A stretch of 64,000 nt of DNA, from NCBI GenBank assembly GCA_963719645.1, contig CAVRCT010000001.1, positions 509,644 to 573,643 on the forward strand, written 5' to 3'. The notes beneath the pieces are model-generated. The model did not search any database. It was not told the origin of the DNA and saw only the letters and a program-made list of their open reading frames with translations. How positions within the stretch are numbered: position 1 is the stretch's first letter; every line of letters starts with the position of its first letter. The stretch is from an uncultured Gammaproteobacteria bacterium (GTDB lineage Bacteria > Pseudomonadota > Gammaproteobacteria > DSM-16500). This document shows positions 1-15,364 of this stretch, piece after piece. A program made the translations under genes and the position numbers.

Positions 1-1250
1 AGCATAAATGGCAGCATTTTATGTATATCCATTATCATTGGATTAATATAAAAAAAACTATAAAAAATTAAGAACAGAGAGGCAGGTGCAATGGCTTCAA
101 TCAGCCAAAGCATGGTTTCTAATTTAAATGATTTTTCGAAATAGACCTTAGCCTTTAACAAATGATAAAGCCATCTGCGATGCATACTATATGCTACATT
201 AGAAGATCTAATTTTTTCTATCTGCATTAACGATTCATTTAAAAAAGAAATAGTTTTACTTTGTTGTGAAAAATAAGCATTTATTTGCTTCGCATTTCTA
301 GCCAGTGAAAATAATTTTATTATGAAAATAATGATATAAATTGTGAAATAAATAAAAGCAAGCAACAAACTGCAATATGCCATATAGACAAGCAAAAATA
401 TAAACGATAGCACGCCACAAACCACCATCAATACCGTTGCAAAAATGACTGACAAAGAAGCCTCATAGTCAGTAAGACGCTGAACAAAATCACTCGATGT
501 AAATTTCTTAACTGCACCAAAAGGCAGACGCAACATATAACTCCATGCAGATGGCAAAACAACGGCTAAGACTCTGATACTCAGTACTTTTAAATATAAA
601 TCACTTAGATAACAGACTAGAGAAGAGCCAACTACCGCCATTAAAGAAATCAAAAATAAAATAAAATTGTGACCCTCCTTTAAATCATGAACATGATTAA
701 AAATATAACCCGAGATCAGTGAAATCAGAAGCACTGAGAGTGACGATAAAAAACCAAGCCCGAAAGAAACAAGAAATCCTTTCTTAAAAAAACGAAAAAC
801 AAAAATAAGTAAACTTGATAAATTAACTGCAAAAAGTGAATGAGCTGGATAACATTGCCACGCCCCACTCAATTCATGACTACTGATACGTTCAGAATAG
901 TGTTCAAACTGTTTCAGCTTGGGATTATATAAATTCAGTCTGCCAAATTGATTAGGAATAAGAACTTTATATTGATCTGATCCCTTAAATTTCAATATTA
1001 TTGGATGCAAGAGTTTAGCAAATATATTTTCAAAGGATAACAATACTGGTTCAAAGATTAATCCAAATAACTCTTTACTTGAATTATCAAGATTAATAGT
1101 CAGTTTCTCTCTAGCAACTTCGTTCCAATCAATAGATACCTTTTGTTGCATCGCAACAAATTTAATGCAATTAATTAAGTCGCAATTCAAATGAGAAGAA
1201 CGAGCGACTTTGTCAAATGCCTGCTGGAAAAATGATGCTGTTAATCGCAT
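1..1250 (-). CDS. ABC exporter subunit, partial (runs off window start); second transporter of the RiPP export module
   Basis: Own minus-strand translation. ATG at 1250 overlaps the stop of the upstream PCAT gene (ATGCGATTAA). The frame stays open to base 1: MRLTASFFQQAFDKVARS...MQQKVSIDWNEVAREKL..., then long hydrophobic helices (LLIFVFRFF, LSVLLISLISGYIF, FILFLISLMAVVGSSLV, VLMVVCGVLSFIFLLVYMAYCSLLLAFIYFTIYIIIF) as in ABC-exporter TMDs. Not in the ORF track because it is edge-truncated. Confidence 0.6.
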   Translation of the reverse strand, partial: MRLTASFFQQAFDKVARSSHLNCDLINCIKFVAMQQKVSIDWNEVAREKLTINLDNSSKELFGLIFEPVLLSFENIFAKLLHPIILKFKGSDQYKVLIPNQFGRLNLYNPKLKQFEHYSERISSHELSGAWQCYPAHSLFAVNLSSLLIFVFRFFKKGFLVSFGLGFLSSLSVLLISLISGYIFNHVHDLKEGHNFILFLISLMAVVGSSLVCYLSDLYLKVLSIRVLAVVLPSAWSYMLRLPFGAVKKFTSSDFVQRLTDYEASLSVIFATVLMVVCGVLSFIFLLVYMAYCSLLLAFIYFTIYIIIFIIKLFSLARNAKQINAYFSQQSKTISFLNESLMQIEKIRSSNVAYSMHRRWLYHLLKAKVYFEKSFKLETMLWLIEAIAPASLFLIFYSFFYINPMIMDIHKMLPFM

Positions 1251-3445
1251 AGCATTGAATCACGCAATGTCGCTTCATTTGCAACTAAAGAATAATAATA
1301 ACTTTGATTCTCTATCAACTCTTGATGCTTTCCTTGTTCGACAATGCTACCCTTGTTTAAAACATAAATTTGATCGCAATGTTGAATCGTTGAGAGGCGA
1401 TGTGCAACAAATATTATTGTCTTATTGTTTTTACGTAAATTCTTTATGATAGCTTGTTCTGTATTTTCATCCATTGCAGATGTTGCCTCGTCAAGAATTA
1501 GTATCGGTGTATCCTGGATCAGTGCTCTTGCAAGATCAATCCTTTGCTTCTCACCACCACTAAAGTTACGTCCTTCTTCATCAACGACACCGCTCAACTT
1601 TCTATTTGCAATTAACTCTGATAAACAAGCATCGCTGATCGATTGCTCAAGAAGCACTTGGCTAGCATTCTCATTTGAAAACAGTAAATTTTGCAAAATT
1701 GTACCTGAAAAAAGTGAAACATCCTGAGAGACATAGGCATATAACGTTGCAAGTTCATCGGCGGAGTGATTTGATAATAGATTTTTATTAAATAAAATTT
1801 CTCCTTCGGTCGGGGGATAAAAACCACAAATTAATTTAGCAAGTGTTGATTTTCCCGATCCCGTTCCACCAACCAATGCAACATGATCACCTCGACTAAT
1901 TTTTAAATTAATATCGTTCAATACAGGTGATGAATTTTTATTATAATAAAATGTGACCTGAGAAAGAGAAATTATTTCCTTTTCATTAGCAGCAAATTTT
2001 TTTATGACTTGTTTAGGCGTAAAACGGGGATCTTTGTCATAAGATAAAATATCGTCAAGCCTCGTATTATTCGCATATACCGCTTGAGAATCTTGTAATC
2101 CTTGAAATATCCGAGATATGCCATTTTGGAAAATCAACAGTAATGAGTAATATCCCATTAAATTACCGAGCGACAGTGAACCGCAAGCAACTTGATAAGC
2201 GCCCAAATAGACGATAGAGAGTGACGAAACCTGATTTTGCATTCTTCTTAGCGACAGCGCTGTAATTGCAAGGAAATCGTCATTACCTTGGACACGCATT
2301 TTATTGAAAAATAATGTTCTCCATTTTTTAAAAATGGACTCTTCTAAGCCGCACGCTTTGATTGTTTCAATGTTTCGAATACTTGAAATACTGTGAGAAT
2401 ACAATTTACCGACTAGGTGTGCATTTGATTTTTCAGAGGAGGATTTTATTCTTGAGAGGTAAACAAACAGGATGAGTGAAATAACGGTCAGCAAAAGTGA
2501 TAGCAATGACAATACCCAGTCAATTTCTATCATGAATATGAAACAGACCGTGGATGTGATCATTCCAAGCATCAATACCAGTGCATTCTCAAAAATTAGA
2601 TTGGTCACAAACTCGGCTCTATTCAACACTGAAACAATTTCGCTGCGTTGACGCAATGAAAAAAATAGCATTGGCAATTGAAAAATATGGCTTAAAATTT
2701 CTGATATCTTTTTTAAGGAGGCTTTCGAATGTAATTTGAACTGAATTCTCTTATAAATAAACGTTAGAAATATGAGAATAGTCGATGTTAAGAATGTTAG
2801 AAAAATAATATCTGGAATCAGGTTGTTATTTTTTGCAAGGATACCTTGATCGATAAATATCTTAAACAAGACTGAACTTAAATAGGGAATAGTGCCAATC
2901 AACGACAATAGTAACAGTAGATAACATAATTCTGAATGAAAACCTGAAAACCATTTTTGGATGAATTTTAGCAATGAGAAGGTTTTTTTGCTGACAGTGA
3001 TGTGCTGCGTTGGTGTTATTTCAAGGATAACACCTGTAAATGCCTTGTCGAACGCAGCCATTGTGATTATCATTTCGCCATGAGCTGGATCATTGATTGA
3101 AACTTTATTTGCTTTGATGTTGTTGATGACAACATAATGATTGAAGTTCCAATACGCTATTACTGGAAGTGAGAATTCATTGAGACCATCGATATCAACT
3201 TTGTATGCTTCTGCGTTAAATCCATAGTGTTTAGCAACCGTTAAAAGTGTTTGTGCTTTGCATCCATCTCGTGAAACACCGCATTTTTCGCGTAATTTCT
3301 CTATGGAGAGATTCATTTTGTGATGGGCAAACACCATTGCGAGAGACGCTATGCCGCATTCTGTATCGGAAAATTGTAGAATGACTGGGACTTTCGTTTT
3401 CCAGACGAGGAATAAATTTTTTATTTTTAGGATTATTTTTTGCAT
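1241..3445 (-). CDS. Peptidase-C39 domain ABC transporter (PCAT; leader-cleaving bacteriocin/RiPP exporter)
   Basis: 734-aa ORF. N-terminal C39 signature QFSDTECGIASLAMVFAHH (catalytic Cys), multi-helix TMD, Walker A GGTGSGKST, ABC signature FSGGEKQR, Walker B ILILDEATS. Confidence 0.9.
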   Translation of the reverse strand: MQKIILKIKNLFLVWKTKVPVILQFSDTECGIASLAMVFAHHKMNLSIEKLREKCGVSRDGCKAQTLLTVAKHYGFNAEAYKVDIDGLNEFSLPVIAYWNFNHYVVINNIKANKVSINDPAHGEMIITMAAFDKAFTGVILEITPTQHITVSKKTFSLLKFIQKWFSGFHSELCYLLLLLSLIGTIPYLSSVLFKIFIDQGILAKNNNLIPDIIFLTFLTSTILIFLTFIYKRIQFKLHSKASLKKISEILSHIFQLPMLFFSLRQRSEIVSVLNRAEFVTNLIFENALVLMLGMITSTVCFIFMIEIDWVLSLLSLLLTVISLILFVYLSRIKSSSEKSNAHLVGKLYSHSISSIRNIETIKACGLEESIFKKWRTLFFNKMRVQGNDDFLAITALSLRRMQNQVSSLSIVYLGAYQVACGSLSLGNLMGYYSLLLIFQNGISRIFQGLQDSQAVYANNTRLDDILSYDKDPRFTPKQVIKKFAANEKEIISLSQVTFYYNKNSSPVLNDINLKISRGDHVALVGGTGSGKSTLAKLICGFYPPTEGEILFNKNLLSNHSADELATLYAYVSQDVSLFSGTILQNLLFSNENASQVLLEQSISDACLSELIANRKLSGVVDEEGRNFSGGEKQRIDLARALIQDTPILILDEATSAMDENTEQAIIKNLRKNNKTIIFVAHRLSTIQHCDQIYVLNKGSIVEQGKHQELIENQSYYYSLVANEATLRDSMLCD

Positions 3446-3501
3446 TGGATAGTGAACTCCGATAAGGCTTTATCTCTCTGCTCCTTCTCACTCCGTAAGC
3501 G

Positions 3502-3530
3502 TCAAGCTAAGCAAAATTTCCTTAGCTTGA
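3502..3530. repeat. Short hairpin repeat (family D: TCAAGCTAAG-N9-CTTAGCTTGA)
   Basis: Perfect 10-bp inverted arms just upstream of the PCAT start. Related copies or half copies at 12921-12949 and 13347-13367. Confidence 0.7.
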
Positions 3531-3655
3531 TGTCCATGGCGAGGAGAGGAAGTTGATGGATGAAGTTCTTTTAAAACGCTTAAGAAAGCGCATCATCCTG
3601 AGCGCTCCAACTCCCGAAAAAGAGGGGGCAGCATTGAATAAGAACTTCTTCTTTT

Positions 3656-4031
3656 TATACAAATCCCCCTTGCTCCCCCTTTTTCAAAGTGGGAGACCTT
3701 CTAAACAGCTTTCACTGTTAAAACACAGAGCTGTTTAGAAGGTCTCCCACTTTGAAAAAGGGGGAACAAGGGGCAATGGCACTAGCTTAAGAACTGTTGT
3801 CCCGGAATTTAGTAGCTCTTAACGAGCGCCTTTTGCTCGTTTAGAGCTACTTAATGTCCGGGATCCATCTTCAATTTATCGCCCTCTTGCTTTTAACTTA
3901 TATGCTTTAAGCAAAATGGATCCCGGACATTAACTGGCGCTAAATTCGCAAAAAGCGCTCATTAAGCGCCAGTAAATTCCGGGACGACAGTTCTTAAGCT
4001 AGTGCCATTGGGAACAAGGGGGATTTGTATA
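3656..4031. repeat. ~375-bp composite nested palindrome (family A units plus an embedded 90-bp hairpin)
   Basis: Outer arms TATACAAATCCCCCTTGCTCC (3656-3676) / GGAACAAGGGGGATTTGTATA (4011-4031). Inner hairpin 3675-3764 (CCCCCTTTTTCAAAGTGGGAGACCTTCTAAACAGC ... inverse). Then CAATGGCACTAGCTTAAGAACTGTTGTCCCGGAATTT...GGGATCCAT // ATGGATCCC...AAATTCCGGGACGACAGTTCTTAAGCTAGTGCCATTG. It sits between the HlyD-like and PCAT genes. Confidence 0.85.
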
Positions 4032-4131
4032 AAAAAAATAAATTTTTCTCTGTAGATACCCATGAAGGTGATTACAAAAAATCAAGAAACTCATTATGCG
4101 TCAGCACAAAAAGCGCATCCTTGACACGAGA

Positions 4132-4980
4132 CTAGCGCTGAGCCATCAATCGCGCTGGCGAACTTTTTTTATAAATTATCTTAGCAGACACCATGGTCCC
4201 CGGCTCAATGCGATAAGACGAACCACGCTTTGTAGTCCATGCTAGCCCACTGTCCGTCGATTTATCTCTTTGTAAACGAATTTTGACAACAAAAGGAGCG
4301 CCTCCCATAAAAAAATCATCCACTAAATTCATATTGCCCAGATACGAATAGACCAATTGTTTTGAAATCGGATACGCAGAAATACTAATCACTTTTCCGA
4401 CAATGTATCCATGCGCATACTGTGATATGTCATTAGATAATACATAAGCGTTCATCCCCACTACTATCTTTTTTCCATGCGTACGATCTGCAAAAACTAA
4501 CGCGTCTAATTGCGTGTTTGAACTATTCATCTCAGTGTTTGATAACAAATTTGTTAAAGGAGAATAAGCATTTCCATTCGGACTAGATAATTCTTCTTTA
4601 GCGGCAATAAGCTCAGATTTTGTTTTTAGTAAGTCCTCTAGCGTGACATAATGATTCTCAAACATTTTCTTCTTCTTATTGTATAAGTCTTCTAACAAAA
4701 CAATTTTTTCATTACGATCTTTCAACGCTTGACTAAAAAGAGTTTCAACTGCAATTAATTTTTCTTCCGGCAGAATCATGCCATTTGTATCAACACTCAA
4801 TGTAATCGTTCCAAACAATCCCCACAGCAAAATACAAACGAGTATTAACGCCGCAAAAATCATCCAGAGCCACTCGCTGGGATTAATCACTTGGAGTGCT
4901 GGGTATATTTCATCTAATGAGTTCAAATTATCAAGAGCATTTTGACGAAATAAATTATTATCAAAAGAAGATTTCAACAT
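4132..4980 (-). CDS. HlyD-family periplasmic adaptor / bacteriocin-system secretion protein (short form)
   Basis: 282-aa ORF. The N-terminus FRQNALDNLNSLDEIYPALQVINPSEWLWMIFAALILVCILLWGLFG (conserved R..AL..L.S.D.L motif plus a single TM anchor) resembles NHLM-type bacteriocin secretion proteins. A coiled-coil stretch and beta-barrel-like C-terminus follow. Located between the ATP-grasp and PCAT genes. Confidence 0.7.
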   Translation of the reverse strand: MLKSSFDNNLFRQNALDNLNSLDEIYPALQVINPSEWLWMIFAALILVCILLWGLFGTITLSVDTNGMILPEEKLIAVETLFSQALKDRNEKIVLLEDLYNKKKKMFENHYVTLEDLLKTKSELIAAKEELSSPNGNAYSPLTNLLSNTEMNSSNTQLDALVFADRTHGKKIVVGMNAYVLSNDISQYAHGYIVGKVISISAYPISKQLVYSYLGNMNLVDDFFMGGAPFVVKIRLQRDKSTDSGLAWTTKRGSSYRIEPGTMVSAKIIYKKSSPARLMAQR

Positions 4981-5003
4981 CTAGTCAACACTATTCCTTT
5001 AGG

Positions 5004-6086
5004 CTAAAAATTTTCAGGAATTTTATGGATACTTTCAGCGTGTTTTTTTATCACCATCATTTCCTTTTCAAAATCAAACAAAGATACACGTCGAGAATTT
5101 ATTTTTTCACAATGACCGCATCGGATCAAAAAATCAACGAAGCATTGAAGCATTTTAATTGTTGGGTTAACATCTTCAATCCACAAAAATTGACCTTGCT
5201 CGTTTATTTCTAAGAAATAATAGTCATCCTCTGGCGTAACAATAAAATCAAAACAGCCGAAAAGAATATTAAATTCACTCATCATTTTTTTACACAATCT
5301 ATCTAGCTTATCTGGAATAGTCACTCTTTCCAATGAAAGCTCTTTGGTCGGCGCAGATCGCCAATCTATTATTGCTTTCTCATGTTCTTGAGAATTAATT
5401 TTGACTGCAACATAATCATCACCAAAATAGGTAATTCTCAATTCATATTTTTTCGCTATTTTTTCTTGAAAAATGCCAGGAATACTTTGTAATATCGCAT
5501 CGCTTGGTAAATCAGACAGGGCTACTTGACTCGTATAACCCAACCGAGCTTCTTCTTTTTTTAGCCAAGCCATTGGATAAAGAGATTTATAGATCACATT
5601 TCCCGCGTGCATTTTAAGAAAGCGTTTAATGTCTTGGGGATTATTCGAGATGAGCGTTTTGGGAATTGTCATTCCAACGGCAGACGCTATTTTTAATTGG
5701 AGCAATTTTGAATTCACTCGCGTGACAGAATTGGGTGGATTGACCCAAACCGCATCCGGTTGGATCACTTGCCATAACGTTTGAAACAATATTCTATTTT
5801 CTTTTTTAGCATTCACTATATCGTCAGGATGCAAAATATCCGGCAATATTGGCTGTGCTGCTCTGCGATGCCAAACAATATCGTACTTTTTATCATGTCC
5901 GTCATAATCCACCCCTTTTAAATGCCATGAGATATTTTTACCCCTTATTTCGAATGAATGCGTTTGTTGCGATGGAAAATCTGCTGTATACCAAAGATCT
6001 GCTGCGTGACCCATTTTTTCAAGCGCTAATTTCACATAAATTGCGTGAGTGTCATCCGGTTTTGTTGGAATTAAAATTGTTAACAC
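5004..6086 (-). CDS. ATP-grasp ligase, microviridin MdnB/MdnC (MvdC/MvdD)-like RiPP macrocyclase
   Basis: 360-aa ORF. The N-terminus MLTILIPTKPDDTHAIYVKLALEKMGHAADLWYTADFP matches the characteristic start of MvdD/MdnC-family ATP-grasp enzymes (ILIVT...D.h...V...L...G......D.FP). Its size fits, and it lies immediately downstream of a small Thr/Asp-rich peptide ORF. Confidence 0.75.
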   Translation of the reverse strand: MLTILIPTKPDDTHAIYVKLALEKMGHAADLWYTADFPSQQTHSFEIRGKNISWHLKGVDYDGHDKKYDIVWHRRAAQPILPDILHPDDIVNAKKENRILFQTLWQVIQPDAVWVNPPNSVTRVNSKLLQLKIASAVGMTIPKTLISNNPQDIKRFLKMHAGNVIYKSLYPMAWLKKEEARLGYTSQVALSDLPSDAILQSIPGIFQEKIAKKYELRITYFGDDYVAVKINSQEHEKAIIDWRSAPTKELSLERVTIPDKLDRLCKKMMSEFNILFGCFDFIVTPEDDYYFLEINEQGQFLWIEDVNPTIKMLQCFVDFLIRCGHCEKINSRRVSLFDFEKEMMVIKKHAESIHKIPENF

Positions 6087-6115
6087 AGCTACCCTCTTTT
6101 CCTAAAATGATCGAA

Positions 6116-6138
6116 AACCCCTCTGATTCAGAGGGGTT
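6116..6138 (-). terminator. Stem-loop between precursor ORF and ATP-grasp gene (candidate attenuator/partial terminator)
   Basis: AACCCCTCTG-ATT-CAGAGGGGTT, a perfect 10-bp GC-rich stem 6 nt downstream of the precursor stop. On the minus strand it is followed by TTCGATCATTTT. Confidence 0.5.
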
Positions 6139-6143
6139 GATAC

Positions 6144-6305
6144 TTAAAAATCAACATTTACATCCATAGCCACATCTGATCCCCCTTGACGACCAAACGT
6201 TGTTGCGGTCGTCGCAACGGAGGTTCCACTGGCTGATACATTTTCAATTTCTGCCGCTGTTAATTTTTGGGATAGTTTGTGAGATAAGATTCTTTCATTT
6301 TTCAT
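6144..6305 (-). CDS. Candidate graspetide precursor peptide (53 aa), not in ORF track
   Basis: Own translation: MKNERILSHKLSQKLTAAEIENVSASGTSVATTATTFGRQGGSDVAMDVNVDF. ATG at 6305, TAA at 6144-6146. Leader spacing L-x3-E-I-x2-V-x-A-S mimics the double-glycine leader consensus. The core has a Thr/Ser-rich half followed by three Asp residues. Confidence 0.6.
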   Translation of the reverse strand: MKNERILSHKLSQKLTAAEIENVSASGTSVATTATTFGRQGGSDVAMDVNVDF

Positions 6306-6392
6306 AATTTACTCCGAAATTTTATTGATATTGTGCTTGTGACATGACAAGCAAAACCATTATCAGAAACTTCCTTTTTTAACACAATATAG

Positions 6393-6411
6393 TGGAAATA
6401 CAGTATTTCCA
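6393..6411. promoter_or_regulatory. 19-bp perfect palindrome upstream of the precursor ORF (candidate operator for the adjacent LuxR-type HTH protein)
   Basis: TGGAAATAC-A-GTATTTCCA, 9-bp arms around one central base, about 90 bp upstream of the precursor ATG and 26 bp downstream of the LuxR-type gene stop. Confidence 0.35.
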
Positions 6412-6436
6412 ATTTTGACAACATCATTTTTGACTG

Positions 6437-6640
6437 TTAATGGAGATTTATGATCCGCACTTTAAGCGCAATAAAAATAATATGCGCTGCATTTTTAGCG
6501 CCTAATTTTTTTCTAATGTTTGCCATATAGGTTTCAATTGTTCTGTGCTCAAGCCCTGTGATCCGCGCAATTTCTTTGGCCGTCAAACCACATGCGGTAT
6601 GTTTAATTATTTCAATTTCTCGACTGCTTAACTTTTGCAT
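6437..6640 (-). CDS. LuxR/GerE-family HTH protein (DNA-binding domain only)
   Basis: 67 aa: LSSREIEIIKHTACGLTAKEIARITGLEHRTIETYMANIRKKLGAKN is a textbook GerE/LuxR C-terminal HTH. Confidence 0.85.
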   Translation of the reverse strand: MQKLSSREIEIIKHTACGLTAKEIARITGLEHRTIETYMANIRKKLGAKNAAHIIFIALKVRIINLH

Positions 6641-6932: not shown

Positions 6933-7253
6933 TATAAAGCAGCGAGATGCTTAAGAAAGGGCTGTCATCCTGAGTGCTTTTCGCTCCGAAGGATCCCACG
7001 CAAATTTCTGATGTTTGCTAAAAAATATTCTTAAGCATCTCTCTACTTTATAGGGAGATCCTTCGGAGCGAAAAGCACTCAGGATGACAGCCCTTTCTTA
7101 AACATCTCTCTACTTTATAGGGAGATCTTCGGAGCGAAAAGCGCTCAGGATGACAGCCCCCTCTTAAGCATCTCGCTGCTTCATAGGGGGATCCTTCGGA
7201 GCGAAAAGCACTCAGGATGACAGCCCTTTTTTAAGCACTCAGGATGACAGCCA
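6933..7253. repeat. Array of family B palindromic units (one forward, about 3.4 tandem inverted, ~65-bp period)
   Basis: GGGCTGTCATCCTGAGTGCTTTTCGCTCCGAAGGATCC at 6958-6995. Inverse units ...TTAAGCATCTC.CT.CTT.ATAGGG.GATCCTTCGGAGCGAAAAGCACTCAGGATGACAGCCC at about 7031-7093, 7094-7158 and 7159-7226, plus a truncated copy to 7251. Confidence 0.85.
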
Positions 7254-7345
7254 TTTCTTTAAATCAAGGCTCTCTTAATAATTCGTTAAGGTAGATTCTA
7301 TAAACTTTACAACTCACTAAGCCATTCATATAAGAGCAATGAACG

Positions 7346-10300
7346 ATGGATTCAAAACGGCAACCTTCCGTCAAACAAGAGAAGCCTACTTTTCTCAATA
7401 GCCCTGCAGGCAAACTGATTAAGACGCTGCTGGATGCGATTCATGTTGCGCAAAAAGAACTTGATAAAATAGCTCATCCAACACCGACAGAGAAACATGA
7501 ATTAAAAGAATTTCTTAAGTACCTAGAGGATACTGTTTCACGCGTTATTTCAATGTTGTCTCACTTTGATAATCAAAATATTCCCTGGTTATTGACCTTT
7601 GTCGATATTGTACTAGATGGATTTAAAATATATAAACAGTTCGATATAAAACGTCCTCTTTTTGAAGACAGCCGCATCATTGGACACCCGATCATTTCTC
7701 GCCTTGCCGCTGCAGTTTTACCAACAATAAAAGAATTTCCGCCCACTTTAAAAGAATTCATGCCTTTCTTAAATCCACAGGCTCTTCATGCTGTCGAAAG
7801 TGTATTAGATTATGATATGACAAAAAAAGCATTGGATCTTGATAACTCTCCTTCCTTTGAACAACATTCCGAGGGAATTACAAATACAGAAAGACCTTAT
7901 CGCTATCTCTTTTGTGAGAACGAAAACCTTCCTGATGAAATGCTTATCTTAGCGGTTGCAGAACCAACACCGGAAGTCATCGCTTCACTGAGAGGAGACG
8001 TTGAATTAATATCGATTTCGGATGTAGTCACTGAAGAAAATCTCGCCGAATTAGAATTCAAATCTAACGCCGCCTATGTGCGCTGCAAAATGTTTTTGAG
8101 CAATGACATAATAACAGAGCGGCTTTACTATATAGACCATCATTTTAAGACATATGCACTATTAGAAATGTCTCAGGAAGAACTGCAAGAACTCGATCAA
8201 GAATTAAAATTAGAAACAGACAGTCGAAAAAAATTAACTACCGATCAATTAAAAAAAATAATGACAGTAACGCCTTATCATCTCCGCAGTTTTGATTTAC
8301 CTTTCTTGCTCACTTGGGACAAAAAATTTTGGTTTTACGCCAACGGCAAAGAAGGAAAATGGTCATTCACAGCAGCGAATTCTGACGTATGTCAATGTTT
8401 ACCTTTTACGCCGGGGAAAATGGTATTTTTAAAAACTAAAAATTTACCTACAAAACTGCTAGTAGCCGTCACACCACCAAAAACCAAAACCCTCGATGAT
8501 GCAATGATGACTTCTATAAGAGGAAATTGCGAAATAGTGTGTCTGCCAAATATTGTGCGGGAAAGAGACGTTGAAAAATTAACATTCGAATCGAATGCCG
8601 CTTATATTCGTTGTAGAATGATTCTCAGCGATGAAAAAGCAGAAGAAACAGTTGTTACGGAACAACTCTATTATCGCGACAAACCACTTAAAACGTTTCA
8701 ACGGTTCCAAGACTTAGATGATGAAGCACTACACGCTTTCGATAAAGCGTTAGAACTCACGACCAAGACACGGCGAATTTTACTGCCTATCGATTTAAGA
8801 ATGATTGATAGAAGAACGCCCCCTCATGACAGAAGCGTTGACAACCATTGGCCGATATTGCTGAAACATGAGAAAGAATTCAGTCTCTATGAATACGATT
8901 CTAAAAGCCAGCGTGGTGAATTTACTCCAGTGAATGCCCTTGTTTGTAAAAAAATTAGTTTTCCTGCTGTCAATAAGATGGCAATGTTAGACTACACCGA
9001 CAGTCAATCGCCGCCGTTATTTCCTGTGTTTCAAGAAATTCATGCGAAAAAAATTCATAATTACGTTCCTATAATTATCGATGCAGATGCGCATTATGAA
9101 GGTTTTGGGCAAAGCCTGATGCATTATTTGCAAGATTTTCGTAGTATGAGCAACTCACCCCATCAAACTATTCTTGAGCAAATAAACACGTGGCTTAAAT
9201 CATTTATTAAACCCGATGATCAAGCAATCATTGAAGATGAATTCAAACAAATGCCAGATTTTATGCCACATAATTTGATGGTTGTGCCCAACGAATTTCA
9301 TTTAGATAAACATTTGTTATCCACTATCTCTTGCACCAGTTTTATTCGTCATCGTGATGGAATTTATTTATATGATTGTGACAGCCAGCGACTTCATGAG
9401 ATGAAGATGTCGGTTTCTCTGCAAGCTTTTGACGAACAATTTAAAACAAAAAACACTTCTCAACCGAATCCCATGATATCCATTACGCTTCCTTTGGATA
9501 AGCCATTAACATCGGAACTCCTTGAAAAATACTCCACCCTGGCTCCACCCTATAGGATTTATCCGATGAAGACTCAATTTACACAGGATTATAAATCCAT
9601 TGGAGATATTCCCGACTATAAAAAATTAGAAACTGCTGGACTACTCTCTTTTAAGAGTACTCCTTTTTATTTACGTTTTTTACTCGGAAAAGGAAAGAAA
9701 AAAGACACCCTCATCTACCGTGTTTTTTCTCGTCAAAAAGAACCTATCGAGGGAGAAATTTCACTAACGGATTTAAAACAGCAATTAAAAGAAAAATATT
9801 CGAATTTTGCGCCACTGTTGGCTAATTTTCCCATCCCAAATAAATCGATGCCTAATCAATTTAATCGCCAATTCTCGCCTTATTTAGCCGATTTTATTGA
9901 AATAGCTGCCAAGAGAGGTCATGTCTCTCCTCTGCAAAAACCTGTCATTGTACGACAAATCGATGAAGGCCCAGATCCTCACCCAGATTCGACCATCATT
10001 TCAGTCTTTGACTACTCTCCTGAAGAAAAAACATGGCGCGTCAAAAAGCTTGGTCTACACGAATTGCCCGAAAAAATGACAGCACCATCCTATCAAGGTC
10101 TATTTGTTTATGGTGTAGATGAAGCAGTTCGCCGAGAGATTGCACTTTGTGGTGCACACAGAGAAAACTTACCCTCATTAAAAGAAACAACACCCAATAT
10201 CGCCTATAGAAGACTTGCTGATAGCGAGATCAATGAATTGCAACAAATGATGCAGTTTTCAGCCAAAACAAATAAGCCGTTTGATCTCATTTATAGATGG

Positions 10301-11488
10301 TATGAAGCTTACCTTAACGTTTTTTCGCAAAACAACATCACTCTTCTTTATCAACCATTTTTGAAAAATCCACAGGGTTGGCTGGAGAAAGTAAAAAAAA
10401 TGAATCACTCTCAGCGCCAAGTTGAAATGAAAGCAGTTGCTGCGCCTGATGCACCTCTGCAAGCAACTATTACAAAAGGAAATGATGCAAAGGAAGAAGT
10501 CAAAGCAGCTCCTGCCTCTTCGTTACCTGCTGAAATTTTCCTAGCAGTACCGGCAACAGAGGCTGTAAACATACTGGATGCTAATATGGAAAAGAAGCAA
10601 GAAGCTACTCTATCGGAGAGTGCTTATGAACAATCTTCTGCATCCTATTGTACAGATGACGATGTGGATAAAATGTTTGCGGAAATCCATGCAGCGCTTG
10701 CTGAAGAACAGCGTTCACAAGAATCCCCATCTTCACAAACAGAAAAGGCGACTTCTTTAAGCAGCGACTTAACACCGTCTCTTCTTCCACAAGTGAGAAA
10801 AGAACTGAGTGAGGAAGACTTCACTCGGTTGATGAAAGAAAATGAAAACAGACCTACTCTTATAGAGACAACACCCCAAGAAGCTTCGTCACCCGCTCAA
10901 ATTGAATTAAACGAAGCGAAAAGAGGAGAAGAAAAAGCCTCTTCATCGAACGGCATTTCCGGCTCTTCTGCAACGTTAGTATTGAAAACCCCGCATTTCC
11001 CCAGCACGATGGGATTGTCAAAGCAATTAAATTTTAAGCAAGAGACAAACTTTCACGGCAAAAATTCGAATGGATTTTTTTCAGGCACGTTTGGTGGATT
11101 CTGCTGCGGATATGGATTGATTAGCTCTGTTGTCATTTATGCGCTGGCTTCTGCTGTAGCCAGCGCACTGACGTTGGGGATAGCGATAGGATTAATATTA
11201 TTTGGCACGGCTATTATCTTGACGCTTCGCGCACGACATCTGGAAAAAAGACCTTTAATCACGGCGAAATCTTCTTCGCCATCTTCTTTCACTCAAGGCA
11301 GATGTACTTCGAGAATGTGGCGCGCGCTTGGCTGCACGCGTCAACAACTTATGTGTGTCACTGCGCAAAGTGATGCAACTGTTGCAGAGCAGACTTCTCT
11401 TGCTAAAGATCGACAGGAAAATCTCCCTAGAGAAGAGATCAGAGAAGAAGCGTATTCATCTGCTAATTTTCGTCGAATAAAAACGTAG
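7346..11488 (+). CDS. Large orphan protein (1380 aa) with internal ~150-aa duplication, C-terminal bilobed hydrophobic domain and acidic tail; effector-like
   Basis: Long uninterrupted ORF. Repeat modules: residues ~200-330 (LILAVAEPTPEVIASLRGDVELISISDV...FKSNAAYVRCKMFLSND...ERLYYIDHHFKTY) and ~365-515 (LLVAVTPPKTKTL...IRGNCEIVCLPNIV...FESNAAYIRCRMILSDE...EQLYYRDKPLKTF). Hydrophobic FFSGTFGGFCCGYGLISSVVIYALASAVASALTLGIAIGLILFGTAIILTL. No family recognised. Confidence 0.75.
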   Translation: MDSKRQPSVKQEKPTFLNSPAGKLIKTLLDAIHVAQKELDKIAHPTPTEKHELKEFLKYLEDTVSRVISMLSHFDNQNIPWLLTFVDIVLDGFKIYKQFDIKRPLFEDSRIIGHPIISRLAAAVLPTIKEFPPTLKEFMPFLNPQALHAVESVLDYDMTKKALDLDNSPSFEQHSEGITNTERPYRYLFCENENLPDEMLILAVAEPTPEVIASLRGDVELISISDVVTEENLAELEFKSNAAYVRCKMFLSNDIITERLYYIDHHFKTYALLEMSQEELQELDQELKLETDSRKKLTTDQLKKIMTVTPYHLRSFDLPFLLTWDKKFWFYANGKEGKWSFTAANSDVCQCLPFTPGKMVFLKTKNLPTKLLVAVTPPKTKTLDDAMMTSIRGNCEIVCLPNIVRERDVEKLTFESNAAYIRCRMILSDEKAEETVVTEQLYYRDKPLKTFQRFQDLDDEALHAFDKALELTTKTRRILLPIDLRMIDRRTPPHDRSVDNHWPILLKHEKEFSLYEYDSKSQRGEFTPVNALVCKKISFPAVNKMAMLDYTDSQSPPLFPVFQEIHAKKIHNYVPIIIDADAHYEGFGQSLMHYLQDFRSMSNSPHQTILEQINTWLKSFIKPDDQAIIEDEFKQMPDFMPHNLMVVPNEFHLDKHLLSTISCTSFIRHRDGIYLYDCDSQRLHEMKMSVSLQAFDEQFKTKNTSQPNPMISITLPLDKPLTSELLEKYSTLAPPYRIYPMKTQFTQDYKSIGDIPDYKKLETAGLLSFKSTPFYLRFLLGKGKKKDTLIYRVFSRQKEPIEGEISLTDLKQQLKEKYSNFAPLLANFPIPNKSMPNQFNRQFSPYLADFIEIAAKRGHVSPLQKPVIVRQIDEGPDPHPDSTIISVFDYSPEEKTWRVKKLGLHELPEKMTAPSYQGLFVYGVDEAVRREIALCGAHRENLPSLKETTPNIAYRRLADSEINELQQMMQFSAKTNKPFDLIYRWYEAYLNVFSQNNITLLYQPFLKNPQGWLEKVKKMNHSQRQVEMKAVAAPDAPLQATITKGNDAKEEVKAAPASSLPAEIFLAVPATEAVNILDANMEKKQEATLSESAYEQSSASYCTDDDVDKMFAEIHAALAEEQRSQESPSSQTEKATSLSSDLTPSLLPQVRKELSEEDFTRLMKENENRPTLIETTPQEASSPAQIELNEAKRGEEKASSSNGISGSSATLVLKTPHFPSTMGLSKQLNFKQETNFHGKNSNGFFSGTFGGFCCGYGLISSVVIYALASAVASALTLGIAIGLILFGTAIILTLRARHLEKRPLITAKSSSPSSFTQGRCTSRMWRALGCTRQQLMCVTAQSDATVAEQTSLAKDRQENLPREEIREEAYSSANFRRIKT

Positions 11489-11614: not shown

Positions 11615-12934
11615 ATGACATCATCATCTAATCAACGTCAAGCTATCACTGACGCCATCAATGAGCATATCCGCGAAACAATTACCTCGAGCGATCCCAA
11701 AATCACGCGATTAGCCGAACAAAAAGACCTTCAAAAAGGTGCTGTCAGATTTTGTTTTTTTGAATTTCATGATAATGAATGGTCGTTTCAGCTTGCTAAT
11801 GAATTAGTGAAAAAATTTGATATTGGTGTCATTGGGTTAGAGCATCCTATCCAGCGAACCGGCTATTTTGAACAAGATAATTATGGAGGCGATTTAGAAA
11901 CAGGCATAGATTATGATGCGCTTGATGACGAGAAAATGAGTGATGATGAAATAGAGCTCAACGTGGCATATTCACGTGCATTAACAACATTTGCTAAATC
12001 ACTTAAAAAAACAGCACCGCTTGTTTGCATAGATCTTGCGACGGAAGAGGAAGAGATACTCTGTAGCAAGCCTGCGATAAAAAGCTATATAACAGATACT
12101 GCTAAAAAATTGCCGCCCAATACTTATGATAAGTATGGTGCTGTCAGCATTCTCAGAGATTCATTGCGTAATCAATTTATGGCGCATACTATTTCTTATT
12201 TTACGTCGGCGCCGATGTCATTAACGATTACTGGCGCAGCTCATAAAAAAATTGTTGATGCATTATATGCGATTGAAAATAATGTGATTCCTATTCTCAT
12301 TAAATTTACCCTTTCAGAGTTAACGAATGCCATTGGCATTACTGTCGAAAATTACACTCCAGAAAAAAATGCAAATTTCTTACAAATAGTGTTGTCGGTA
12401 CCCGCTTTTGATGAATGCGATCCTCAACTTTTTAAAATGCTGATTGATGAGATAGCGAGTCCAATTACTCGATATCTTCAGCGGAGAAAAGAGGGAGTTC
12501 TTGAACCGGAAATCTCATTTCGCAAAATGATTTGCTTACCTGCACCTAAACCAAAAACATCTGGACATGCAGGAGATACAAAAAGTTCAGCAAGCTCATC
12601 GAGCTCTTCTTCAAGTTCTTCTTCGAGCTTTTCTTTGAACTCTTCTTTGAACTCTTCTTTGAGCTCTTCTTCGAGCTCTTCTTCAAGCGCGGCTCATGCA
12701 GCTTCAGATAATTCTGCAGCCCCAGGTGCTTCTTCTTCAGAAACATTGAAAATTGTATCAAAATCTACATTGCCTTTGGGCTTTGCTAAAAAACAAGAAA
12801 AATCTTCGAGTTCTTCAGAAGACGCATCAGATAATAAAAAAATATCTGGGCACAAGAGAAAAGAACATCCTGAAGCAGATCGAGATAATCAGAAACACAC
12901 TAAGCCCGGGTACAACCCATACGCGTCAAGCTAA
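11615..12934 (+). CDS. Orphan protein with C-terminal poly-serine low-complexity region
   Basis: 439-aa ORF with AGAGG RBS-like sequence upstream. SSASSSSSSSSSSSSFSLNSSLNSSLSSSSSSSSS tract encoded by imperfect tandem repeats (about 12590-12700). The last codons and stop lie inside the flanking palindromic repeat. Confidence 0.7.
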   Translation: MTSSSNQRQAITDAINEHIRETITSSDPKITRLAEQKDLQKGAVRFCFFEFHDNEWSFQLANELVKKFDIGVIGLEHPIQRTGYFEQDNYGGDLETGIDYDALDDEKMSDDEIELNVAYSRALTTFAKSLKKTAPLVCIDLATEEEEILCSKPAIKSYITDTAKKLPPNTYDKYGAVSILRDSLRNQFMAHTISYFTSAPMSLTITGAAHKKIVDALYAIENNVIPILIKFTLSELTNAIGITVENYTPEKNANFLQIVLSVPAFDECDPQLFKMLIDEIASPITRYLQRRKEGVLEPEISFRKMICLPAPKPKTSGHAGDTKSSASSSSSSSSSSSSFSLNSSLNSSLSSSSSSSSSAAHAASDNSAAPGASSSETLKIVSKSTLPLGFAKKQEKSSSSSEDASDNKKISGHKRKEHPEADRDNQKHTKPGYNPYASS

Positions 12935-13323
12935 GGAAATTTTCTTAGCACACTTTCACCCACAGAGCTTAGGTATTCCTCCGCTGTGTCGTCCTGAAAA
13001 ATCTTACGCCCGAATTATTTGACCGTAGTTATTGTAGTAGCGCGTAAGATTTATTCAGGATCCACGAACGAAGAACTGATTCTGGAATTTTTATGGATCA
13101 ATGATACTCAAGTGGATCCTGAATAAATATTCCGTGCGAGTACTATCGCTACGGTTAAAGTACGTTGACGTCATATTTTTCAGGACGACGCATGGGTGGA
13201 ATTTGCGTCGATCCGTCAGCCCTGTGGGCATAGGCGTCAAGCTGCTGTGTCGTCCCGCGCTAAAAGCCGCGCGGGACGACATAGCGGAGGCTTGTGTAGA
13301 TCCTTAGCTTGTGACGCGTATGG
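12917..13323. repeat. ~400-bp multi-level nested palindrome
   Basis: Paired arms, outermost to innermost: CCATACGCGTCAAGCTAAGG (12917-12936) / CCTTAGCTTGTGACGCGTATGG (13302-13323); CCTCCGCTGTGTCGTCC / GGACGACATAGCGGAGG; TGTCGTCCTGAAAAAT / ATTTTTCAGGACGACG; CGCGTAAGATTTATTCAGGATCCAC / GTGGATCCTGAATAAATATTCCGTGCG. There is also an embedded family C hairpin GTGTCGTCCCGCGCTAAAAGCCGCGCGGGACGACA. Confidence 0.85.
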
Positions 13324-13579
13324 CCCTTGCGGGGGAAGACATTCGAAGCAAAATTTCCTTAGCTTGAGGCTCATGGGATACAACCATAACCTTACCTATA
13401 AGTACAGTTGCAATACTTGTGACTCTGCAAAATTTGACCCCATACAAAACCTGGTTTACTTTGTCTATAATATTGCCCATGATGTAAAGATATGCTAAAT
13501 ATATAGCCAATTTTAAATTATTATTTCGCAAGAATCACACAGAGGCTCAATCATAGATTCAAGACCTAAAAAAAACTTA

Positions 13580-15191
13580 ATGCCCAGTAAAAAACATCCC
13601 CGCGACGAGGAATTGAAAGATGGGAATGAGCTCCCCACTAAACGTACAAAACGAGCAACGTATCAAGGTTCTTATAAAGAAAACTCTGGTTCTGGTTCTG
13701 ATGTTGAGATGGATGATAGCGACAGTGAAGAAAAAAAAAGACGCTGTGACAACGCCTAAAAAAGTAAAAAGCAAAAAAAGAAAGAGGCATGCTTTCAGCA
13801 CAACTGCTTTAGAAACCCCCGCTCCGGGTTTTAAAGCAACACTCCACTCAGAAGCCGCGTGGCCTACTGAGGGTGAAAAAAATGAAACTATTATAAAATT
13901 AACGGTCGGAAGCTCCTTCGACAGAAACAAATATGACAAGGCACTTATTGCGGCTAGACAAGCATATATCGATGCCAATCAAGTACCGCCGTTACCGGAA
14001 ATTGAGGAAGAATATAAAACCGGAATTTACAAACTTGCAATTTTTAACACAAGAAATAATAAGTTCTGCAAATATTCTTTCGCCGATAGAAATCTGCTGG
14101 GCTATATTAGGGCCACTGTCAAAAGAAAGAATAGTAGTAACTTGTTTGAAGCGAAAGGTAAACCCACTGAGAAACTAAAAGCTAAAATTATGCAGTTATT
14201 GAAAGGAGAGGCGCTGGGTACTAAAAAAGGCTCGAAGAAAAAAGAATTGGCTGCAGAAGTTGACACATTGCAGGGAGAAGAAAAAGAACAATATTTGCGT
14301 GCAATTCGATTTGCTGAGGTATGGGTTAATGAATTTTCATCGTTAAGAAATGCCGGTAATGCGCCGAAGAAAAAATCTAAATCTAAATCTGACTTTGTTG
14401 CAAAAGATTCTACAACATTAAGTTCTTCTAGTTCTTCTAGTTCTTCTAGTTCTTCTAGTTCTTCTAGCTCTTCTAACTCTTCTAGCTCTTCATCAGGTAA
14501 ATTTGGGGGCAAAGTGTCGGCGCGCTCAAGCTACAAGACTAAATTCAACTCTCAACCTACCATTGGATTTGAAAATAACACGGATTCTGTTGCAGATGAC
14601 TCTGCTAGATTAAGCTCCTCTAATTCCTCATCGAGTTCTTCGTCGAGTATGACAGCAGCAGCGCAACATCAGAAACAATCTAACCAAAGCCCGTTCGATT
14701 ATTCAGACGGCGATACTGCAAATACCCCAAAAAGGTTCGGGTTTTTTAGTTCATCTAGCTCTTCTAGCTCTTCTAGTTCCTTATCTAACGCCATAGAGGA
14801 AGCTTTGCTGTTTGGAGAGATGGACTTTTACGAGGACAACACTAATAGTTCTTCGTCTAGTTCTTCGTCCATTGCGCCTCTTTTTCCATCTTCTCCGATA
14901 GATTCGTCTCATTCCTCGACAGCAGGCGTCATGCAAGCAATGTCAGCTAGTCCTGCTAGACCAGCACGCTCAAATAGTTTTTCTGATAATCCAGTTTATA
15001 ACTCACTCAGTTCAGCATATTCATCTCACCCAGGATACTGCTTTTCTGATTCATCTCCTTACCCAATCGAGCCAATCGAACAACCCGAACCAAAATGGGA
15101 AAGGAGTCTTAGCGGCAATTCAGCCAATAACGATGAAATGCTAGAAGATAGCAAAGATGCAAAAGTTGATAAGACTTTCAGACCGTACTAG
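13580..15191 (+). pseudogene. Ser-rich, basic-cluster (NLS-like) orphan protein split by a frameshift at an A9 tract (or phase-variable/slippage gene)
   Basis: ATG 13580 gives MPSKKHPRDEELKDGNELPTKRTKRATYQGSYKENSGSGSDVEMDDSDSEEKKRR, stopping at 13757-13759. After A9 (13731-13739) the track ORF frame (13620..15191) reads KKKKDAVTTPKKVKSKKRKRHAFS... An A8 tract would fuse both into one ~536-aa ORF. The first ~35 aa of the track ORF (MGMSSPLNVQNEQRIKVLIKKTLVLVLMLRWMIATV) look like out-of-frame reading. Confidence 0.55.
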
Positions 15192-15214: not shown

Positions 15215-15364
15215 CAATGGCACTCGCTTAAGAACTGTCGTCCCGGAATTTACTGGCGCTTAATGAGCGCCTTTTGCGAATTTAGCGCCAGTTAATATCC
15301 GGGATCCATTTTGCTTAAAGCACATAAGACGTAGGTTGGGTTAAGCGTCAGCGAAACCCAACAT
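15215..15364. repeat. Family A1 unit plus family E hairpin
   Basis: CAATGGCACTCGCTTAAGAACTGTCGTCCCGGAATTTACTGGCGCTTAATGAGCGCCTTTTGCGAATTTAGCGCCAGTTAATATCCGGGATCCATTTTGCTTAAAGCACATAAG, followed by GTTGGGTTAAGCGTCAGCGAAACCCAAC. Confidence 0.85.

Follow-up and report, generated by a model that had tools for sequence, protein, structure and literature searches.

A probable group 8 graspetide operon of the Legionellales type in an uncultured gammaproteobacterium

The closest described counterparts of the locus analyzed here are the precursors Gra-7A and Gra-7B of Legionella pneumophila, which belong with the ATP-grasp enzyme WP_106184356.1 (group 8). When expressed in E. coli with this single ATP-grasp, they undergo three dehydrations, and cleavage by LahT150 placed these in the core (Ayikpoe et al. 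2022, PMC9576775). According to Carter et al. 2026 (PMC13097080), NHLM ABC1 (43%), HlyD (39%), and HEAT (35%) genes co-occur with group 8; Makarova et al. 2022 contains 33 mentions of Legionella precursors. Group 2 likewise co-occurs with NHLM ABC1, HlyD, and LuxR-family genes.

The stretch examined, referred to as the window, comprises 64,000 nucleotides from an uncultured gammaproteobacterium. It carries six co-directional minus-strand ORFs, all of which a sequence-only reading had placed correctly and had taken to be a graspetide make-cleave-export unit. Comparisons of the enzyme, the precursor, and the export genes bear this out, and the cluster is probably a graspetide (omega-ester peptide) operon with such a route, of the group 8 type found in Legionellales. 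Its six ORFs show no disruption and have plausible ribosome-binding sites, and the cluster as a whole looks intact and appears to encode its own cleaving exporter. The operon order is kept in at least 17 relatives. Relatives are encoded on 230 genome stretches, and numerous genomes of Legionella, Coxiellaceae, and Berkiella are among the best 80; the cluster is thus not unusual for a bacterium of intracellular type, as had been supposed, nor is its kind uncharacterized, as Gra-7 has been expressed and found to be dehydrated three times. Rather than standing alone, it joins a family whose members had been catalogued before in Legionella and related bacteria. Within this family the locus falls into a Coxiellaceae-type subclade. 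What sets the subclade apart from the Gra-7 system is a GerE regulator of its own, a cis element of 19 nt, an enzyme C-terminal extension of ~35 aa, and the full trio of HlyD-like, PCAT, and ABC2 genes directly downstream; the window also differs from that system in having one precursor and in missing the HEAT protein.

The 360-aa protein encoded at 5004..6086 (minus strand, GTG start) is predicted to be the graspetide synthetase, an ATP-grasp macrocyclase. Its MdnC-like pattern had been recognized from sequence, and HMM, PDB, and Foldseek comparisons all group it with RiPP macrocyclases and not with RimK, GshB, or Ddl. The top NCBIfam matches are the RiPP ATP-grasp maturases TIGR04187/04185/04184 (E ~1e-53), and the PDB sequence matches consist only of the graspetide cyclases MdnC, MdnB, AMdnB, CdnC, PruB, and PsnB. 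An AlphaFold2 model (pLDDT 88.7) superimposes on MdnC with a TMq of 0.75 and a TMt of 0.84-0.87, and graspetide cyclases fill Foldseek ranks 1-32. A primary-metabolism ligase of the RimK, GshB, or Ddl type, lying by chance beside a transporter operon, would be in keeping with weak matches to GshB/RimK models (E 3e-5 to 2e-3) and with some JGI automatic names, which read "glutathione synthase/RimK-type ligase-like". However, the RiPP maturase models match better by ~50 orders of magnitude, no primary-metabolism ligase occurs among the PDB sequence matches at E < 0.01, and RimK appears structurally only from rank 33, at 14% identity; this identity is effectively refuted. The macrocyclase retains 65 of 66 family-invariant residues and is 67% identical to the enzyme of the nearest relative (L086). 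Compared with the Gra-7 system it is ~40-44% identical, and Legionella orthologues served for an EFI-type comparison: enzymes adjoining Gra-7-like precursors align with it at scores of 75-79, above the threshold of 70 that defines graspetide groups, so that group 8 membership is assigned through these proxy enzymes rather than through WP_106184356.1 itself.

Directly upstream of the synthetase gene lies the 53-aa precursor ORF (6144-6305, minus strand). A homologous peptide ORF occupies the same place beside the ATP-grasp homologue in all Legionellales-type loci; this is far beyond chance, and the ORF appears to be a genuine precursor. An alignment of 26 precursors, including Gra-7A/B, divides it into a leader of residues 1-26 (MKNERILSHKLSQKLTAAEIENVSAS; 6228..6305, minus strand) and a 27-aa core (GTSVATTATTFGRQGGSDVAMDVNVDF; 6144..6227 with the stop codon, minus strand). 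The leader contains an ERILS-H motif with an invariant Arg5, which we propose is recognized by the enzyme, followed by a double-Gly-type export and cleavage signal, L-x3-E-I-x2-V-S-A-S. We set the cut register by Gra-7A: the mass that we calculate for cleavage immediately behind GG agrees with the 3459.5 published for its LahT150 product. The corresponding site here is predicted to be VSAS|G, with an uncertainty of about one residue; positions -2/-1 are Ala-Ser rather than Gly-Gly, as they are in the closest precursor (L081, 71% identical). The core follows the pattern TxxxTxxxT…DxxxDxxxD. Across the alignment R5, D44, D48, and D52 (precursor numbering) are invariant, conservation at the three Thr/Ser positions is 70% or more, and the consensus T-x3-T-x3-T ... 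D-x3-D-x3-D is common to Gra-7A/B. The window peptide is only 27-29% identical to Gra-7A/B and, unlike them, is without Lys, yet the architecture is the same, with (E/D)R(I/V/T)LxY as the N-terminal leader motif, a site of double-Gly type, a segment rich in Thr, and DxxxDxxxD at the C-terminus.

Because the leader signal is of double-Gly type and a PCAT is encoded nearby, the small ORF might instead specify an unmodified, class-II-like double-glycine bacteriocin that is handled by the PCAT only, with the ATP-grasp acting elsewhere. We consider this very improbable: precursor and ATP-grasp genes are strictly adjacent across many genomes, even in loci with no PCAT nearby, the invariant Asp triad and conserved Thr triad would go unexplained without cross-linking, and a homologous enzyme removes three waters from homologous precursors. 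In the preferred graspetide reading, the synthetase would bind the leader, with the conserved ERILS(Y/H) motif as the probable point of contact, and use ATP to activate the side chains of core residues D18, D22, and D26, the predicted acceptors, as acyl phosphates. The hydroxyls of T2, T6, and T10, the predicted donors, would capture these to give a tricyclic tri-lactone with a mass change of -54 Da. We propose this step on the basis of homology and of the three dehydrations measured for Gra-7A/B, the same number being expected for the window peptide. As the core contains no Lys, only esters are expected, and the predicted [M+H]+ of 2704.25 would fall to 2650.22 upon loss of 3 H2O.

Other graspetides place the system further. 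Microviridin (MdnA/MdnB/MdnC, group 1) shares the enzyme fold and chemistry (MdnC 5ig9, E 2.8e-38, 30% identity, TMt ~0.85), and both systems rely on leader-dependent ATP-grasp macrocyclization of side chains. The window, in contrast, has neither the PFFARFL leader motif nor, as had been noted from sequence, the TxKxPSD core; it encodes no GNAT and, where microviridin has two ATP-grasp enzymes, a single one, and its Lys-free core is ester-only. The description "microviridin-type" consequently holds at the superfamily level but not as closer kinship. Plesiocin, made by PsnB (group 2), and thuringinin (group 3) are, like the predicted product, ester-only graspetides with repeated Thr...Asp/Glu motifs. 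Thuringinin has a hairpin-like topology. PsnB is distant from the window enzyme (E 7e-8, 35 bits), and the core motif is not TTxxxxEE.

Cleavage and export would fall to three genes that match NHLP/NHLM systems (TIGR03794, TIGR03796, TIGR03797) in components, gene order, and best-matching models. The HlyD-type periplasmic adaptor (4132..4980, minus strand) is short, 282 aa, a length (~280 aa) typical of the clade. An N-terminal tail with the sequence LFRQNAL leads into a single transmembrane helix, followed by a short hairpin of helices and, at the C-terminus, a beta-barrel. Relative to the TIGR03794 model the adaptor is ~140 aa shorter, having no lipoyl halves and little of the coiled coil, and it lacks two segments of ~73 and ~62 aa that are present in a 431-aa homologue. 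Its AlphaFold2 model (pLDDT 80) best matches MacA, MexA, EmrA, and BesA; 23 of 25 family-invariant residues are retained, and the adaptor of L086 is 64% identical. The 734-aa PCAT (1241..3445, minus strand) combines a C39 peptidase (8e-41), a TMD, and an NBD. It aligns full-length with PCAT1 (4ry2, 6e-89) and also matches ComA; the catalytic Cys claimed earlier is indeed intact, together with its His/Asp context (C39 motifs Q-x5-C30 and HYVV-x10-I-x-DP), and the Walker A/B, signature, and H-loop motifs are all present. A PCAT likewise lies near Gra-7. The second ABC half-transporter, ABC2, overlaps the PCAT gene by 10 nt at ATGCGATTAA, a real start/stop overlap, and runs off the window after its first 416 codons (1..1250, minus strand). 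The full protein, taken from contig L083 of the source organism (100% identical to window 1-3661), is 701 aa long and has canonical NBD motifs; its N-terminal 150 aa are not C39-like.

The NHLM assignment stands in part: NHLM_micro_HlyD, ABC1, and ABC2 are the best NCBIfam matches of the adaptor (4.9e-36, 124.5 bits, cut-off 156), the PCAT (6.9e-185, 616 bits, cut-off 853), and full ABC2 (3.7e-122, 409 bits, cut-off 709), but all fall below the curated equivalog cut-offs, as every match of the locus to a curated NCBIfam model falls short of its cut-off. For this reason we regard these proteins as divergent subfamilies. The predicted cargo also differs: a graspetide takes the place of an NHLP or Nif11-type peptide. 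As proposed, the C39 domain would remove the leader at VSAS|G, and the PCAT/ABC2 pair with the short adaptor would, judging from family membership, export the 27-residue product.

Two features of the locus raise the question of decay. More than 30 relatives, the closest among them, have a gene for a HEAT-repeat secreted protein after the enzyme gene; between the ATP-grasp and adaptor genes of the window it is missing, and a needed function could have been lost with it. Moreover, ~690 bp of nested palindromic, MITE-like repeats (3446..4131; inverted repeats of 98, 45, and 38 nt) lie between the adaptor gene and the PCAT gene, a junction that spans 7-320 bp, mostly 10-100 bp, in relatives. The six-gene block is therefore complete in its ORFs but not gapless. 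The insert is outside the ancestral operon, and further repeat copies lie at 15215-15328, 25338-25446, 27365-27593, and 51049-51099. No promoter-like site was found on the operon strand within it, and so structured an insert could reduce PCAT/ABC2 expression. A decaying remnant, whose peptide is no longer efficiently made, processed, or exported, would account for these features, for the loss of a HEAT protein kept even by L086, for the lone precursor (many relatives have 2-3), and for surroundings rich in IS66, IS110, IS30, IS21, and IS3 elements with a truncated VirB4. Nevertheless, the intact ORFs and ribosome-binding sites, the near-complete invariant residues of enzyme and adaptor, and the preserved catalytic and NBD motifs in the two ABC proteins argue against decay, and Gra-7 was cyclized without a HEAT protein. 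We judge a remnant unlikely, though the most credible of the alternatives, and retain the reading of a graspetide operon.

A stand-alone 67-aa protein (6437..6640, minus strand) is confirmed as a LuxR/GerE-type HTH regulator (Pfam GerE, 6.6e-15), and the Pfam search found no receiver or ligand domain in it. Orthologues (48-73% identity) hold the same position in Coxiellaceae-type loci, where this small regulator invariably accompanies the operon, as does a conserved 19-nt element in cis, CTGTATTTYTACARTATTG. The window form, CTGTATTTCCACTATATTG, lies upstream of the precursor gene (6385..6403, minus strand) and is the sole match in the window at up to 3 mismatches, with 0.10 expected by chance. 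Each of 15 related loci has one copy of the element, which lies on the strand of the operon and upstream of its first precursor; off-site matches number only two in 1.38 Mb. We infer that it is a candidate operator or promoter, from which the precursor would be transcribed, probably under the adjacent regulator.

Such dedicated control invites the idea that the exported peptide is mainly a quorum-sensing-like autoinducing signal acting through the regulator and operator-like element, all the more so as some PCAT-exported double-Gly peptides are pheromones, for example ComC, whose exporter ComA is itself a full-length PDB match. Yet the operon contains no sensor kinase or receptor gene, its regulator has no ligand-binding domain, and Legionella-type loci have no GerE regulator at all, which together make a signaling role improbable. 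Characterized graspetides are mostly protease inhibitors, which also speaks against a signal, and our default guess for the product of the proposed graspetide operon is a protease inhibitor or competition peptide.

Between the precursor and ATP-grasp genes, a GC-rich hairpin (CCCCTCTGAATCAGAGGGG; 6118..6134, minus strand; MFE -16.5 kcal/mol) precedes a T-run and forms a terminator-like site. Of 16 evaluable loci, 13 have an equivalent hairpin at this position, although its sequence is not conserved. It is likely an attenuator or partial terminator that would limit read-through into the enzyme and export genes. A perfect palindrome, GGAAATAC-T-GTATTTCC (6394-6410), overlaps the 19-nt element and is specific to the window.

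The window contains a real, apparently functional group-8-type graspetide operon. All six minus-strand ORFs that the sequence-only reading had proposed are present: a GerE-type HTH protein (6437–6640; Pfam GerE, 6.6e-15), a 53-aa precursor ORF (6144–6305), a 360-aa ATP-grasp enzyme (5004–6086) with a GTG start and AGAGGG ahead of it, a 282-aa adaptor (4132–4980), a 734-aa C39-ABC protein (PCAT, 1241–3445), and a second ABC ORF (ABC2) that exits the window at base 1; as that reading also said, its start codon (ATG) overlaps the stop codon of PCAT. What is peculiar to this cluster is that a HEAT-repeat partner gene has been lost, that repeats have been inserted, and that there is a single, ester-only precursor.

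The ATP-grasp enzyme sides with the RiPP macrocyclases in NCBIfam, PDB, and Foldseek searches alike, which rules out a primary-metabolism ligase (RimK, Ddl or GshB), the identity that would have undone the original proposal. Three NCBIfam RiPP ATP-grasp maturase models match the protein at ~1e-53, as against 3e-5 to 2e-3 for the GshB and RimK models. A sequence search of the PDB returns graspetide cyclases only, with MdnC first (2.8e-38) and MdnB, AMdnB, CdnC, PruB, and PsnB after it. When an AlphaFold model of the enzyme (pLDDT 88.7, built from 22 homologues) was submitted to Foldseek, ranks 1–32 were all chains of these same six proteins, with a TMq of 0.75 and a TMt of 0.84–0.87 for MdnC, and RimK appeared from rank 33 on at 14% identity. 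The fold match of the model is unambiguous and places the enzyme, including its pre-ATP-grasp domain, in the MdnC/PsnB macrocyclase lineage. A comparison of 21 homologues gives 66 invariant positions, of which the protein keeps 65. Its NCBIfam scores (~180 bits) all fall under the curated cut-offs of 350–475, and it therefore lies outside every named equivalog, in a separate subfamily; Pfam PF21068 gives a weak match that is also under its cut-off (E 3.7e-4).

A database search returned 803 homologues of the enzyme and a genome scan found 230 stretches encoding relatives, the best 80 of which were compared as loci. Among these 80, every Legionellales-type locus has one to three small ORFs homologous to the 53-aa ORF directly upstream of the enzyme gene, and the conservation of this ORF on which the sequence-only reading depended is thus borne out. 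An alignment of 26 precursors, among them Gra-7A and Gra-7B, already published from L. pneumophila, reveals an invariant Arg5 within an ERIL(S/A)(Y/H) leader motif, a double-Gly-type signal of the form L-x3-E-(L/I)-x2-(V/I)-S-(G/A)-(G/A/S), three core Thr/Ser positions at four-residue spacing (T28/T32/T36 in precursor numbering), and three invariant Asp residues at the C-terminus with the same spacing (D44, D48, and D52). The enzyme gene is adjoined, then, by a precursor with a conserved leader and with conserved core residues of the donor (Ser/Thr/Lys) and acceptor (Asp/Glu) classes, as expected of a graspetide cluster. No further precursor gene besides 6144–6305 was found in the window.

The window precursor probably divides into a leader (residues 1–26) and the core GTSVATTATTFGRQGGSDVAMDVNVDF, with the cut register borrowed from Gra-7A. 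The published mass of the three-fold dehydrated Gra-7A product released by LahT150, the protease used in that work to cut leader from core, is 3459.5 and equals the mass calculated for a cut immediately after GG. The −2/−1 residues of the window precursor are Ala-Ser, as they are in its closest precursor homologue, from the related locus L081 (71% identical). In core numbering, T2, T6, and T10 are the predicted donors and D18, D22, and D26 the predicted acceptors, and since the core has no Lys, only esters are possible. By analogy with the homologous Gra-7A and Gra-7B, which lose three waters on co-expression (PMC9576775), the window product is predicted to contain side-chain omega-ester rings.

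These properties point to group 8, the SSN group of Ramesh 2021 and Carter 2026 that contains Gra-7, the original definition being taken here second-hand. Gra-7 from L. pneumophila was refactored as two precursors with one ATP-grasp enzyme, and three dehydrations were seen on each precursor; it was placed in group 8, and ring positions were not assigned (Ayikpoe et al. 2022, PMC9576775). The window precursor aligns end to end with Gra-7A and Gra-7B and has its leader motif, its place of cleavage, and its DxxxDxxxD spacing in common with them. At a threshold of 70 for graspetide groups, the window enzyme has EFI alignment scores of 75–79 against Legionella enzymes encoded beside Gra-7-like precursors (loci L040, L041, L043, L045, and L046), which serve as a proxy for the cognate Gra-7 enzyme WP_106184356.1. 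Group 8 is stated to co-occur with NHLM-type transporters, and of its 230 listed clusters 43% contain NHLM_micro_ABC1, 39% HlyD, and 35% HEAT repeats (Carter et al. 2026, PMC13097080); the window has ABC1 and an HlyD-like gene without the HEAT protein, such genes being frequent but not obligatory.

In microviridin (group 1) clusters the leader carries PFFARFL, the core reads TxKxPSD(E/D)(D/E), and an acetyltransferase accompanies two ATP-grasp ligases; the window cluster has none of these. The sequence-only reading had correctly noted that the precursor lacks the microviridin core motif, and the MvdC and MvdD equivalogs give the enzyme 179 and 176 bits, far short of their cut-offs of 425 and 475. 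A plesiocin-type assignment was considered, since LuxR and NHLM genes accompany group 2 as well, and was rejected on a PsnB similarity of only 35 bits and a different core motif. The claim that such a cluster is unusual in a bacterium of intracellular type did not survive the literature. Legionella precursors of group-8 type have already been listed (Makarova et al. 2022, PMC8939145), and as both the architecture and its occurrence in Legionellales are published (PMC9576775, PMC13097080, PMC8939145), the argument for unusualness fails.

Reports on group 8 so far give dehydration counts only, without ring topology or activity. The predicted donors and acceptors of the core (6147–6227) can be paired either in mirror symmetry (2+26 = 6+22 = 10+18) or at a constant distance of 16, so that a nested ladder and an interlocked topology both fit. 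The loop from the last Thr to the first Asp is 6–7 residues long among relatives. We put forward one joint reading, as a whole rather doubtful, in which Legionellales group-8 peptides, that of the window among them, adopt a tri-lactone topology unseen in solved graspetides, the Coxiellaceae-type clusters form a separately regulated anti-protease system, and the window holds a natural minimal version for which the HEAT protein is dispensable. The topology may be a three-rung cross-strand ladder (T2–D26, T6–D22, and T10–D18) or three interlocked i-to-i+16 rings. The Coxiellaceae-type subclade has a GerE regulator and an operator-like element of its own, and amoeba-associated bacteria may use its system against the proteases of hosts or competitors.

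The core varies among relatives. Cys replaces Thr at the second donor position in precursors of two related loci (L010:1717–1884, TTSVCAGATY; L007:9813–9974, RIIWCGQGSY), which raises a thioester or a skipped ring as a question. Distant enzyme homologues (38–44% identity) occur in Thermoanaerobaculia (L021–L031 and L036–L037) and Archangium (L065 and L079). The precursors beside them have quite different conserved cores, such as CWTLTDPPDGPYRDH in Acidobacteriota, those of Thermoanaerobaculia being of the (T/D)ITN...D.D type, and leaders of a related RILGRxLAxEL type.

The assignment of the adaptor and both ABC proteins to the NHLM families stands in part. The best-scoring models are NHLM_micro_HlyD for the adaptor (4.9e-36), NHLM_micro_ABC1 for PCAT (6.9e-185), and NHLM_micro_ABC2 for ABC2 (3.7e-122), yet all three proteins miss the NCBIfam equivalog cut-offs (TIGR03794, 124.5 vs 156.2; TIGR03796, 616.2 vs 853.3; TIGR03797, 409.1 vs 709.4) and are therefore relatives rather than strict NHLP/NHLM members. 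PCAT has the domains expected of its class, an N-terminal C39 (Pfam 8e-41) with a TMD and an NBD, and aligns full-length with PCAT1 (4ry2, 6e-89) and with ComA; its C39 domain keeps the catalytic Cys, His, and Asp and the oxyanion Gln, with Q24/C30 and the H-Y-V-V...D-P motif aligned to the matching PCAT1 residues. The full ABC2 could be read from a same-sample short-read contig (L083, ERR11630400) that is 100% identical to window positions 1–3661, and is a 701-aa protein in which the Walker A, Walker B, signature, and H-loop motifs are all canonical. A degenerate C39-like domain at its N-terminus was considered and discarded, as the N-terminal 150 residues have no C39 similarity. Homologues of the adaptor are consistently ~280 aa long, and alignment with a 431-aa relative that has the usual adaptor Pfam domains shows that blocks of ~73 and ~62 aa are absent; since they would follow the membrane helix, we take them to be the lipoyl halves and the larger part of the coiled coil. 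The best structural matches to a model of the adaptor (pLDDT 80) are MacA, MexA, EmrA, and BesA. Judged by these similarities, the adaptor, PCAT, and ABC2 are predicted to act like an NHLM export system.

Conservation of the six-gene block, which the sequence-only reading proposed as a check, holds for gene order, which recurs as GerE, precursor(s), ATP-grasp, X, short adaptor, PCAT, and ABC2 in a Coxiellaceae-type clade (loci L002–L012, L014, L018, L033, L081, L082, and L084), but these relatives hold an extra gene, X, that is absent from the window. Neither this absence nor the 690-bp gap ahead of PCAT (3446–4131) figured in the sequence-only reading. X encodes a protein of ~350–370 aa that has HEAT_2 repeats and, at its N-terminus, a hydrophobic segment resembling a signal peptide; in more than 30 Legionellales loci, Legionella species included, X is the next gene after that of the graspetide synthetase. 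Copies lie at L008:11121–12233, L002:11114–12205, L009:11120–12214 and 12355–13440, L081:7220–8293, and L086:779–1861, and L007 and L009 each have the gene as a tandem pair. The protein has no NCBIfam name, and its PDB relatives are generic HEAT repeats only. In the window, the adaptor gene begins just 23 bp beyond the stop codon of the enzyme gene, and no remnant or displaced copy of X was found anywhere in its 64,000 nt (best match E 0.65). As the nearest relative found, L086 (enzyme 67% and adaptor 64% identical), retains X, lineage-specific loss is the best reading. For the peptides of L. pneumophila, the ATP-grasp enzyme alone sufficed for cyclisation, so that their ring formation does not require X.

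The intergenic stretch that separates the GerE gene from the first precursor gene holds a 19-nt element, CTGTATTTYTACARTATTG, that is present there in 15 related loci and, with two mismatches, in the window (6385–6403). Only two stray matches occur in 1.38 Mb of locus DNA, and 0.10 would be expected by chance in the window. The element includes a TGTA-N4-TACA inverted repeat; the window instead has a perfect 8-1-8 palindrome a few bases upstream of that position. The element is a plausible candidate for an operator bound by the GerE protein. Downstream of the last precursor gene, 13 of 16 evaluable loci have a GC-rich hairpin, whose sequence is unrelated between loci. A hairpin after the precursor gene is the usual arrangement to keep precursor transcripts in excess. 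Sites from a sigma-70 promoter scan were no commoner than in shuffled sequence, and we therefore claim no promoter from it; no known RNA families were found in the window.

The cluster leaves the current understanding of graspetides and of intracellular bacteria unchanged. The gain is modest: a clean, compact group-8 example in which a single enzyme goes with a single precursor, whose 27-residue core can form esters only. The comparison offers, across the Legionellales clade, a usable donor/acceptor prediction (TxxxTxxxT/DxxxDxxxD), a probable cut site, a conserved candidate operator for a small GerE regulator, and a conserved secreted HEAT-repeat partner that the window genome has lost.

The interval between the adaptor and PCAT genes (3446–4131) is 690 bp long, compared with mostly 10–100 bp (range 7–320 bp) in relatives, and contains inverted repeats nested in one another, their arms 98, 45, and 38 nt long. 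The sigma-70 scan, overall no better than shuffled sequence, found no promoter-like site on the operon strand within it, and the same-sample short-read contig L001 breaks off inside these repeats. Palindromic MITE-like copies of this family, with arms up to 98 nt and 80–96% identity, occupy four or five other intergenic places (15215–15328, 25338–25446, 27365–27593, and 51049–51099), and same-sample short-read contigs terminate within them. A second small repeat family, GGGCTGTCATCCTGAGTGCTTTTCGCTCCGAAGGAT, occurs several times, in direct and in inverted orientation, ahead of the GerE gene (6933–7260), with a further copy 16 kb off (23760–23814).

The rest of the window fits the IS-ridden setting that had been described, in an IS-rich genome of Legionellales type, with three IS66 copies as well as IS110, IS30-like, IS21, and IS3 elements. 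It also encodes a HipA-family kinase toxin (15828–17141), a 1046-aa ankyrin-repeat protein (20466–23606), and many large ORFs without a Pfam match; those adjoining the cluster (439–1380 aa; 7346–11488, 11615–12934, 13620–15191, and 17255–20110) are effector-like orphans. Synteny of the neighboring 1380-aa ORF with the Ceg14-domain neighbor in L081 was considered, and there is none. An ORF for a VirB4-family type IV secretion ATPase (48661–50226) covers only profile positions 4–522 of ~790, sits in a higher-GC stretch beside IS66 copies, and is probably a truncated pseudogene.
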